From: Candidatus Omnitrophota bacterium
Lineage (GTDB): Bacteria > Omnitrophota > Gorgyraeia > Gygaellales > Profunditerraquicolaceae
Reading direction: 5' to 3'
Length of the DNA: 64,000 bases
Assembly: GCA_028715415.1 (NCBI GenBank)
Contig: JAQURX010000001.1
Location: forward strand, 24,386-88,385
Of this stretch, positions 39,001 through 42,000 are shown piece after piece; position 1 is the first letter of the stretch, and every line of letters starts with the position of its first letter. The position numbers are program-made.

Positions 39001-42000
39001 CCGGTTGGGATTTAAGGGTTATCCCTAGCATTGCTCCTTTTTTGAAGATTGAAGGAGAACTTGATCGTCGAGGTAAGGGTTTGTATGACTTAATGAATGG
39101 CGTTGGCGCCCATGAGATTATTGTTGAAACAAATAAGCATATAGATAATATGGCGGATTTAGGTGAGGAGCAGATTTCTAAGGTAATTACCTGCTATATT
39201 GATAGGATTGTTGATTTAGAGAAGGATAAGCGGTTTAAGTACGCGCTTGTTTTTAAGAATCATGGTTGGGTTGCTGGTGGAAGCGGAGTAAAGCATTCAA
39301 GGTCACAATTAATTGCAACTCCGGTTAATCCTAAGAGAGTAAAAGAAGAGCTTGTTGGTGCGCGGCAATATTTTGAGTTTCACGAAAGATGTATTTTCTG
39401 CGATTTAGTTAAGCAGGAGTTAGCGTCAAAAGAAAGGCTTATTCTTGATCTTGACGGATTTATTGCAGTTACTCCTTTTGCGGCAAGATTCCCTTTTGAA
39501 GTTTGGATTTTACCGAAGAAACATTCTTGTGATTTTGTGAGCCTAGATATGGATTCACGCCTAAATTTGGCGCGTATAATGAAAAAAGTCTTTTCAAAAC
39601 TTAAAAAAGGTTTAAATGATCCACCTTATAATTATGTTATTCATACAGCACCATTCAGGCGTCAAAAAGGTGGATATTGGAAAACAATTGATCAGGATTA
39701 CCATTGGCACATCGAAATTATGCCCCGTCTTACCCGTGTAGCAGGTTTTGAGTGGGGGACAGGTTTTTACATCTGTCCACTACCTCCAGAAAATGCTGCG
39801 GAATTCTTAAGAGGGGTAGAGGCTTAATATGGCTGAATTAAGAAGAGACCCGATTATCGGAAGATGGATTATCGTAGAAACGGATCAGCCTAATAAACCC
39901 GAAGATTACGTTCATGAACAATATGTCCCTAAGGGAGGAGTTTGTCCGTTTTGTTATGGCAATGAGTCGATGACTCCTCCGGAAATAGATTCTATCAGGC
40001 ATTTAGATACCCAAGCTAATTCTTCGGGTTGGCAGGTTAGAGTTGTCCCTAACAAATTTCCTGCTTTGCAAATTGAAGGTGAATTAGATAGACGTGGAAT
40101 TGGGATTTATGATATGTCTAATGGAGTTGGTGCTCACGAAGTTTTAGTTGAGACGCCATATCATCACAAGGATATTCCTGATCTATTAAATGAAGAAATT
40201 GAGAATTTTATTGTAATGTATTGCAGGCGCATAAATGATTTGGAAAGAGACAAGCGTTTTAAATATATAATGCTTTTTAGGAACTATGGCGCTGCTGCAG
40301 GGGCTTCTTTGGAGCATCCTCATACCCAGTTGATTGCTCTTCCTATGGTGCCAAAGAATGTTATGGAGGAATTAAGGGGGTCGGAGAATTACTTTGATTT
40401 TCGTGACAGGTGTTTGTTTTGTGATATTATCAGGCAAGAGAATCAGGAAAAAGAAAGGATAGTATTGGAAAATAAATATTTTATCGCTTTCTGCCCGTAT
40501 GTTTCGAGATTCCCTTTTGAAACCTGGATAATTCCAAAGAAACACAATGGTTCTTTTTCTCGCATGCCTCATGAAGAAATACCGGCATTTGCCGCCATAT
40601 TAAAGGATACTATTTCGAAATTAAAGAAAGTTTTTGTTAATTTGTCGTATAATTACATAATTCATAGTTCGCCGATTAATGGCGATGGAGGGCAGGATAG
40701 TTATCATTGGCATCTGGAATTAATGCCTAAATTAACCCGCGTTGCAGGATTTGAATGGGGGACAGGATTCTATCTTGTCTCAACTCCTCCGGAATTAGCC
40801 GCGCAATATTTGAAATCCGTATAGTTAAGAATATAATAACAATTAACAAACACCTGGCGCTTATCGGCGCCTGGCGCAAATAGGCATTGCGCCAGCATGC
40901 GCTTGTGCGCAAATTGCGCCAGTACCCTTTAAGGGCAAGGAGGTAACAAATGGCAGTAAAAGTAGGTATCAATGGTTTTGGAAGGATTGGCCGTCTGGTC
41001 GCAAGGGCTATTTTTGAGAAAAAGAATTCTGGCCTTGAATTAGTCGCTGTGAATGATTTAACTGACGCCAAAAGTAACGCTTATTTGTTTAAGTATGATT
41101 CAGTGCATGGGAGGTTCCCCGGGGAAGTAAAAGCAGTAGGGGAGGATTCAATTTCAATTGATGGTAAAATCGTAAAGGTTCTTTCAAAGAAGGATCCTTC
41201 AGAGCTTCCATGGAAAGATTTAGGAGTTGATATTGTTGTTGAGTCAACAGGTCTTTTTACCGTTAAGAAAGATGGAGTTAATAAAAAGGGCAAAGAGGTA
41301 AAAGGAGCGGAAAATCATATTACCAAAGGCGGGGCTAAGAAAGTAATTATTTCAGCTCCTGCTGAAGGTGAAGATATAACTATAGTTATGGGTGTTAATG
41401 AAGATAAATATGATCCTAAGAATCATAGCGTAGTTTCAAATGCTTCCTGTACGACGAATTGTCTTGGCCCTATTGCAAAGGTTATGAATGATAAATGGGG
41501 AATTGAAAAGGGGTTAATGACCACAATTCATTCGTATACCAATGATCAAAGAGTGCAGGATATGGCTCATTCTGATTTAAGAAGGTCGCGTGCAGCCGCT
41601 GTTTCAATGATTCCAACATCGACGGGTGCGGCAAAAGCGATAGGTTTAGTTGTTCCGGAATTAAAGGGTAAATTAGACGGGTTTGCAATCCGTGTTCCTA
41701 CTCCTAATGTTTCGGTAGTTGATTTAACCTGCTCTTTATCAAAGAAAGTAACCGTTGAAGAGCTTAATGCGGCTTTTAAAGAAGCTGCTGAAGGAAGGAT
41801 GAAGGGCATCTTGGCAATTACGATGGATCCAGTTGTTTCTGTGGATTTTAACCATTGCTTGCTTTCGTCAATAGTGGATGGTTTAAGCACAAAGGTTATC
41901 CAGGATAATTTTGTTAAAGTCCTATCTTGGTATGATAATGAATGGGGCTATTCTAATAGGGTAGTTGATTTAGCTGAATATATGGTGAAAAAAGGCCTAT

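Follow-up and report, generated by a model that had tools for sequence, protein, structure and literature searches.

Analysis of a 64-kb stretch of a Candidatus Omnitrophota metagenome-assembled genome (MAG) (contig JAQURX010000001.1; the whole stretch is referred to here as the window) revealed an unusual leader in front of gap, the gene for a type I glyceraldehyde-3-phosphate dehydrogenase (GAPDH). The gene follows a galT-like gene. The intergenic stretch between the two (40810-40949) comprises a promoter-like site, a 70-nt GC-rich island of inverted repeats, and a small hairpin with the Shine-Dalgarno (SD) sequence. The junction is made up as follows.

39829 to 40824, + strand: galT-like/HIT-family gene, the second of a tandem pair, whose 3' end abuts gap in relatives
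40810 to 40837, + strand: sigma-70-like promoter, TTGAAA (40810-40815), 16-nt spacer, TATAAT (40832-40837)
40854 to 40860 and 40871 to 40877, + strand: the two CTGGCGC copies
40866 to 40871, + strand: GGCGCC palindrome
40889 to 40895 and 40916 to 40922, + strand: the two GCGCCAG copies
40937 to 40943, + strand: SD sequence AAGGAGG, 6 nt before the ATG
40950 to 42002, + strand: gap, 350 aa, 100% identical to P0001, with domains PF00044 and PF02800
42033 to 42063, + strand: intrinsic-terminator-like hairpin 3' of gap, 14 pairs and a T-run, kept in the closest relative, locus L161 (1174-1201)

The repeats had been reported in a first-pass annotation of the window, and all of them (CTGGCGC twice, GCGCCAG twice, GGCGCC, and a tgcgc/gcgca mini-hairpin) were found in the 70-nt island where it had placed them. 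The near-consensus promoter that it described, TTGAAA-16-TATAAT, was likewise confirmed. This site has an 11/12 match and the top score within 38-44 kb. Its -35 hexamer sits inside the final codons of the upstream galT-like gene, the product of which is 100% identical to P0121, and its -10 hexamer plus flank (GTTAAGAATATAATAA) is identical in L161. Transcription is predicted from the putative -10 to start at about 40844-40846, and the island begins at 40853/40854, ~8-9 nt from this predicted start. The SD sequence of gap is conserved, being AGGGAGG in L161 and A/GGGAGG in all relatives. Because gap has its own predicted promoter and a strong terminator-like hairpin after it, it is predicted to form a monocistronic unit within a long co-directional lipopolysaccharide/polysaccharide gene cluster.

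The composition of the island was compared with that of the window. Positions 40853-40922 form the highest-GC 70-nt stretch of the 64 kb, with 62.9% GC versus a mean of 34.9% (standard deviation, 6.4). The island holds 7 of the 106 GCGC tetramers of the window, and four of the six CTGGCGC/GCGCCAG matches fall inside it. The array had been called very non-random. This holds for the GC-rich island, which is the most extreme in 64 kb, and less so for the repetition of the heptamer: four copies of one 7-mer or its complement were reached by 259 of 5000 shuffles with local dinucleotide content fixed, which makes the repetition mildly unusual. The folding energy was ~2.3 standard deviations better than that of shuffles (z of -2.8 with DNA parameters). 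In view of these shuffles, the real anomaly is the GC-rich, GCGC-rich palindromic island as such rather than the repeated heptamer. An independent Logan assembly (L165, SRR22315506) reproduced the intergenic sequence base for base, and therefore the island is not an assembly artifact; a 1.3-kb Logan contig was matched by look-up with the galT-like protein. Perfect GC-rich hairpins, surveyed across the window and related loci, proved to be rare and unrelated. Such hairpins are therefore not a genome-wide style of leader.

The distribution of the island among relatives was then determined. The junction from the galT-like gene to gap was obtained from six distinct relatives (L081, L086, L162, L163/L164, L168/L169, and L170), whose GAPDH proteins are 76-91% identical to that of the window. 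In these six syntenic relatives the spacer is 19-39 nt long and AT-rich, and both the island and the TATAAT are absent. The island is also absent from distant relatives with another gene order (L001 and L082-L085). A GAPDH-based locus search of GTDB representative genomes gave a best match of 77% (L001, a MAG labelled Elusimicrobia), which lacks the island. The same type of search in metagenome contigs revealed at least six close loci among the matches listed, and none of them carries it. Among the relatives recovered, only the closest one, L161 (GAPDH 94% identical), has the element. L161 is a 2.4-kb Logan contig with gap followed by rfbA, as in the window. Its element is a single hairpin, CTGGCGC-TTATCGGAATT-GCGCCAG (arm, loop, and arm of 7, 11, and 7 nt), followed by GCCC-TTTCT-GGGC and the SD sequence. 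Absence of the motif from the gap leaders of relatives, part of the outcome that the first-pass annotation had named as speaking against its proposal, was thus observed in all six distinct syntenic relatives and not in L161, so that the proposal is largely contradicted.

Alignment of the window with L161 revealed a nested arrangement of hairpins, with the following parts.

40854 to 40922, + strand: outer hairpin, formed by the arms CTGGCGC (40854-40860) and GCGCCAG (40916-40922); the original loop is split into TTATCGG (40861-40867) and AATT (40912-40915)
40868 to 40911, + strand: 44-nt segment absent from L161 in the pairwise alignment, lying exactly in the outer-hairpin loop, without a flanking direct repeat
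40871 to 40895, + strand: inner hairpin, a second, diverged 7-11-7 unit, CTGGCGCAA / TTGCGCCAG, nine perfect pairs and the 7-nt loop ATAGGCA
40898 to 40911, + strand: mini-hairpin TGCGC-TTGT-GCGCA of 5 bp, arms 40898-40902 and 40907-40911
40925 to 40935, + strand: small hairpin CCC-TTTAA-GGG beside the ribosome-binding site; the L161 counterpart is GCCC-TTTCT-GGGC

The ortholog of the outer hairpin in L161 is its only 7-11-7 hairpin (L161 positions 39-63). The window leader matches L161 through CACCTGGCGCTTATCGG, then contains 44 extra nt, and then continues with AATTGCGCCAGT, where the two are again identical. The 44-nt block consists, in this order, of CGC, CTGGCGC-AAATAGGCATT-GCGCCAG, CA, and TGCGC-TTGT-GCGCA. 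In the spacer of the inner unit, 7 of 11 bases match the L161 loop, and two changes (TT to AA) extend the stem to 9 bp. Over 34 nt, the inner unit matches the L161 unit at 25 positions and differs at 9. The stems, of 7, 9, and 5 bp, all consist of perfect Watson-Crick pairs, with zero G-U pairs, and this speaks for a palindrome that arose recently at the DNA level rather than for a long-evolved RNA. A GC content of 63% in a 35% genome is hard to reach by point mutation of an AT-rich spacer, which argues for insertion.

The predicted folding of the leader is degenerate. The nested three-hairpin form, which under DNA parameters is the centroid, has -34.4 kcal/mol as RNA; the minimum free energy (MFE) fold has -35.8 kcal/mol and a form pairing copy 2 with copy 4 has -33.4 kcal/mol, so that all lie within about 1-2.5 kcal/mol. 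This degeneracy follows from the seven self-complementary GCGC tetramers and by itself is no evidence for a switch. The CCCUUU of the small hairpin can, by prediction, alternatively pair with the SD sequence. In the window leader, the SD sequence is predicted to be mostly paired, with a probability of being unpaired of 0.02-0.3 at six of the seven bases and 0.86 at the fifth; in the L161 leader it is predicted to be largely open.

Features expected of known regulatory devices were sought in and around the leader. The suggestion of a structured RNA or attenuator is borne out by the leader position and by nested or alternative hairpins that can be folded in prediction, and is not borne out by a terminator, an Rfam match, or conservation. 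On the + strand of 40838-40949 there is no intrinsic-terminator-like site; the sequence 3' of the last arm is TACCCTTTAAGGGC. The whole window gave no match to Rfam 15 at gathering score, and a search of 40700-41050 at an E value of up to 10 gave only chance-level matches (E values of 5.3 and 6.9, with 17 and 14 bits versus cut-offs of 80 and 55). A conserved structured RNA was rejected: the element is absent in six syntenic relatives and present in one, and its stems are identical in both carriers, so that there is no covariation. A leader-peptide attenuator was rejected as well. The 11-codon upstream open reading frame (ORF) MRLCANCASTL (40897-40932) has no SD sequence and lies mostly inside the 44 nt missing from L161, the leader of which contains no ATG. 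A sigma-54 promoter (TGGCGC...TTGC) was discarded by eye: of the two candidate -12 elements, one would give a GG-to-GC spacing that exceeds the required distance by 4 nt, and the other a spacing that falls 1 nt below it.

The operator of the Bacillus gapA operon that is bound by CggR, a SorC/DeoR-family repressor, consists of the tandem direct repeats CGGGACN6TGTCN4CGGGACN6TGTC. The gap leader of the window resembles it in having repeated GC-rich motifs between promoter and gap gene. It differs in that its repeats are inverted and of another sequence, no cggR gene lies upstream, and the CggR motif was not found near gap. The CggR-like pattern CGGGACN6TGTC had 12 matches with up to two mismatches in the 64 kb, which equals chance (11.1), and none in 40-42 kb. 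The repeat spacings of 17, 18, and 27 bp show no helical phasing, and the half-site centers are 18 bp apart. A domain scan was applied to 30 ORFs, 20 in 27-58 kb and 10 elsewhere that were partly picked as small ORFs; apart from PriA, fmt, and gap, which were assigned by context, it takes in every ORF within 14 kb that has 90 aa or more. Among the scanned ORFs, there was no HTH, SorC, or DeoR domain and no transposase, including the Y1 (RAYT) type. The CggR-type operator array and the nearby CggR/DeoR/SorC regulator put forward by the first-pass annotation thus found no counterpart. These results indicate that the island is not a conserved riboswitch, attenuator, or CggR-type operator array.

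The island is best explained, with about an even chance of being right, as a young, lineage-specific, GC-rich palindromic insertion that is nested and is transcribed as a stable, constitutive structure in the 5' untranslated region (UTR) of gap. The ancestral state would be the AT-rich spacer of 19-39 nt between the galT-like gene and gap. GC-rich palindromic DNA would have entered this spacer as the 7-11-7 hairpin CTGGCGC-N11-GCGCCAG plus the small adjacent hairpin, as in L161. In the window lineage, the diverged second 7-11-7 unit and the 5-bp mini-hairpin (together the 44 nt) may have been nested later in the loop of the first hairpin or may have been inserted with it as a compound. With the promoter (40810-40837) before it and the ribosome-binding site (40937-40943) after it, the island would make up the first ~80 nt of the transcript, a monocistronic gap mRNA. 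The transcribed leader would fold into a multi-hairpin structure of about -35 kcal/mol that is very stable and conformationally degenerate. Its effect, whatever it is, would be constitutive, that of a 5'-proximal stem-loop acting on mRNA stability and/or translation initiation, with no switch by a ligand, terminator, or repressor. Any phenotype would most probably come about through mRNA stability or translation initiation. The DNA may have come either from a dispersed mobile hairpin family (similar to REP/REPIN elements, miniature inverted-repeat transposable elements [MITEs], or GC clusters) or from local duplication or template switching.

Stabilizing stem-loops close to the 5' end are known in bacterial mRNAs, such as the leaders of Escherichia coli ompA and Bacillus subtilis aprE, and in B. 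subtilis, cleavage of the cggR-gapA transcript by RNase Y yields a stable processed gapA transcript. The gap leader of the window is similar to these in having a stable hairpin near the predicted 5' end and upstream of an intact SD sequence, in belonging to a presumably highly expressed mRNA, here a glycolytic one, and in a predicted constitutive rather than ligand-responsive action. In contrast to the ompA and aprE leaders, it is a multi-hairpin structure occurring only in two near-identical lineages, its 5' end is predicted, and the hairpin lies ~8-9 nt from the start. In B. subtilis the stable end is made by RNase Y from cggR-gapA, whereas no cggR was found here among the scanned ORFs. As a short palindromic insert or 5'-UTR stem-loop, the island is nothing out of the ordinary; what is unusual is how neatly it is nested.

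The divergence between the window and L161 bears on the age of the arrangement. The gap genes are 86.7% identical at the DNA level and 67% identical at 4-fold degenerate sites, and the leader outside the indels is ~94% identical. The outer hairpin, including its loop halves, is identical at 29 of 29 positions. In the first 150 nt of gap (40950-41099), third codon positions are 88% identical to L161, versus 60-71% further on. Since these adjacent third positions are also unusually conserved, the argument from leader conservation is weak. The local tract of leader and gap 5' end may be recombined or locally conserved, or the 5' coding region may be constrained. The inner unit diverged at 9 of 34 positions and the outer one at 0 of 29; therefore, either the nested arrangement predates the split and was cleanly lost in L161, or the inner copy derives from a diverged copy elsewhere.

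Several results weigh against a young insertion. No second copy of the element was found in the window with arm pairs allowing up to one mismatch or with whole-unit Hamming scans; a dyad with up to one mismatch per arm likewise had no other copy in the 64 kb and its 54 ORFs. A pattern search in 164 loci found none beyond L161 and L165, and blastn-short searches against the window and all 170 loci gave the same result. A scan of viral contigs found no copy. Local duplication or a template switch is therefore as possible as a mobile origin. The 44-nt difference may be a gain in the window lineage or a deletion in L161, in either direction. The 29/29 identity of the outer hairpin hints at a sequence-specific constraint on stem and loop, which would fit a protein-binding site equally well or better.

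Such a binding site would be an operator for a trans-encoded dimeric regulator that binds CTGGCGC-N11-GCGCCAG downstream of the promoter and represses or modulates gap by a roadblock; L161 would then have one operator, and the window an intact operator nested in a split one. The perfect dyad symmetry, the position at +10 to +80 from the promoter-like site, the 11-nt spacer length kept in the L161 unit and the inner window unit with 7 of 11 spacer bases shared, and the identity of stem and loop of the outer unit at a level of 67% for 4-fold sites are consistent with this explanation, the kept spacer length and loop bases being the strongest points. We nevertheless consider it improbable: the scanned ORFs include no regulator, the window lacks a homolog of the HTH_24 gene of relatives, CggR-type repeats are missing near gap, no other dyad exists in the 64 kb, the half-sites lack helical phase, the element is absent in six distinct relatives, and the local rise in synonymous conservation weakens the 29/29 argument. 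A riboregulator, in which alternative pairings of the four repeats, and of the CCCUUU and copy-4 flank with the SD sequence and AUG, would switch gap translation in response to temperature, a metabolite, or a protein, appears very unlikely. Although the conformers lie within about 2.5 kcal/mol, the SD sequence is predicted to be mostly paired in the full window leader, and the small SD-adjacent hairpin is kept in the window and L161 despite sequence change, the degeneracy is trivial with seven GCGC tetramers. The L161 leader forms one hairpin with no alternative set and a largely open SD sequence in prediction. Neither an Rfam match, a terminator, nor a conserved upstream ORF is present, and the carriers recovered are only two, with the element absent in all other relatives.

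The third explanation is a dispersed, non-autonomous mobile hairpin family resembling REP/REPIN elements, MITEs, or mitochondrial GC clusters, which would insert preferentially in hairpin loops or AT-rich spacers and would be neutral in front of gap. We regard it as unlikely. A GC-rich palindrome within an AT-rich genome, variable presence among close relatives, a diverged copy nested exactly in the loop of another copy, and the presence of another palindromic insert at the same junction in L166 all argue for it. The inner copy is 26% diverged, compared with 0/29 for the outer orthologs, which fits a different family member better than a local duplication after the split. It is opposed by the lack of other copies in the 64 kb, the fetched loci, and viral contigs, of a target-site duplication, of a terminal inverted repeat besides the stem, and of a Y1 (RAYT-type) or other transposase among the scanned ORFs. 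A MITE was rejected, as neither the 44-nt block nor the complete element is flanked by direct repeats. REP elements have no target-site duplication, and REP/REPIN sequences occur in tens to hundreds of copies per genome with a cognate RAYT (Y1 transposase). The island is, like them, a short extragenic imperfect palindrome; in common with REP/REPIN elements and MITEs it has units of 25-35 nt, is nested or compound, and varies between close relatives, and as in REP elements there is no target-site duplication. In contrast to REP/REPIN elements, one locus is known in the 64 kb, no RAYT is present among the scanned ORFs, and there is no evident conserved head of the GTAG type. A literature search on palindromic repeats of Omnitrophota found nothing relevant. 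A precedent is provided by the GC clusters of yeast mitochondria (e.g., GC42), which are mobile GC-rich palindromes of 42 nt and can merge with one another (PMC4478555). Similarities are GC-rich hairpin units of ~40 nt in AT-rich intergenic DNA, polymorphism between strains, and merging or shuffling; the yeast clusters differ in being organellar, in having dozens to hundreds of copies per genome, and in an AG target dinucleotide, whereas the element described here is bacterial, was seen in one copy, and has no identified target motif. A broader proposal, which we hold to be quite unlikely, is that the 7-11-7 unit represents an undescribed family of small GC-rich hairpin elements in AT-rich Omnitrophota, a bacterial counterpart of the mitochondrial GC clusters that makes no target duplication and prefers its own loops and AT-rich spacers, and that the copy before gap was co-opted as a 5'-UTR stabilizer, helping gap to become a strongly expressed unit with its own promoter.

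If the explanation as a young palindromic insertion is correct, the locus would be a small and fairly clean case of a central-metabolism gene leader remodelled over a short evolutionary time. An operon-internal spacer of 19-39 nt would have acquired a palindrome and then a nested self-copy, beside a promoter-like site and a terminator that make gap its own unit. It would also be a caution that a conspicuous GC-rich repeat array in an AT-rich genome can be a young palindromic insertion and is not necessarily a conserved regulatory RNA or operator array. The significance would rise if, genome-wide, the unit turned out to form a dispersed mobile family or to serve as the operator of a regulon.

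Further observations were made at the junction in relatives. In L166/L167, the galT-like protein is 84% identical to that of the window and the gap product only 60%; the difference indicates that gap was replaced there. Between the galT-like gene and the replaced gap lies a 131-nt palindrome unrelated to the island (L166 4001-4131, equal to L167 1788-1918). Its 37-nt arms consist of units that contain CGTT and recur with an 8-nt period, a second inverted repeat, of 19 nt, lies at its center, and no further copy was found among the fetched loci. It looks like a MITE or a binding-site array. The presence of this unrelated palindrome at the same junction suggests that the spacer tolerates or attracts palindromic inserts. 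A candidate attenuator was noticed in L084 (about 2760-3000), an Omnitrophota-like relative at a greater distance: gap is preceded there by a TTGACA-17-TATAAT promoter of its own and by a ~150-nt leader, which contains a hairpin followed by T8 (CCAGAGGCTGGGAGTTTTTTTT).

The gene order around gap was also compared. In the window, PriA and fmt (both by context) and two galT-like genes (by Pfam) precede gap, and rfbA, rmlD-like, and rmlB-like genes follow it. The tandem galT-like/HIT-family paralogs (DUF4921/DUF4931 plus GalP_UDP_tr_C; window 38802-40824) are kept directly upstream of gap clade-wide. Downstream of gap, the gene content varies among relatives, being pgk-tpi-secG, rmlD-like, HTH_24-neuB, or rfbA, so that gap stands at the border of a variable region for glycan synthesis. 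The conserved HTH_24 gene, encoding a winged-helix protein of ~110 aa, lies just downstream of gap in L166 (5352-5699), L168 (4011-4355), L170 (3215-3547), and L163 (16608-16934), and its product may regulate the adjacent variable polysaccharide genes. The rfbA leader (window 42129-42230), which is the second half of the spacer between gap and rfbA, shows 93% identity to L161, much more than the 4-fold sites do, and contains a small hairpin, CCTATAAAAATAGG, before the rfbA ribosome-binding site. All 54 ORFs of at least 90 aa in the window are on the + strand, and GC skew is positive throughout. A 264-aa ORF covers positions 2317-3060, and three B12-binding radical-SAM genes cluster with two methyltransferase genes at 50.9-58.2 kb.

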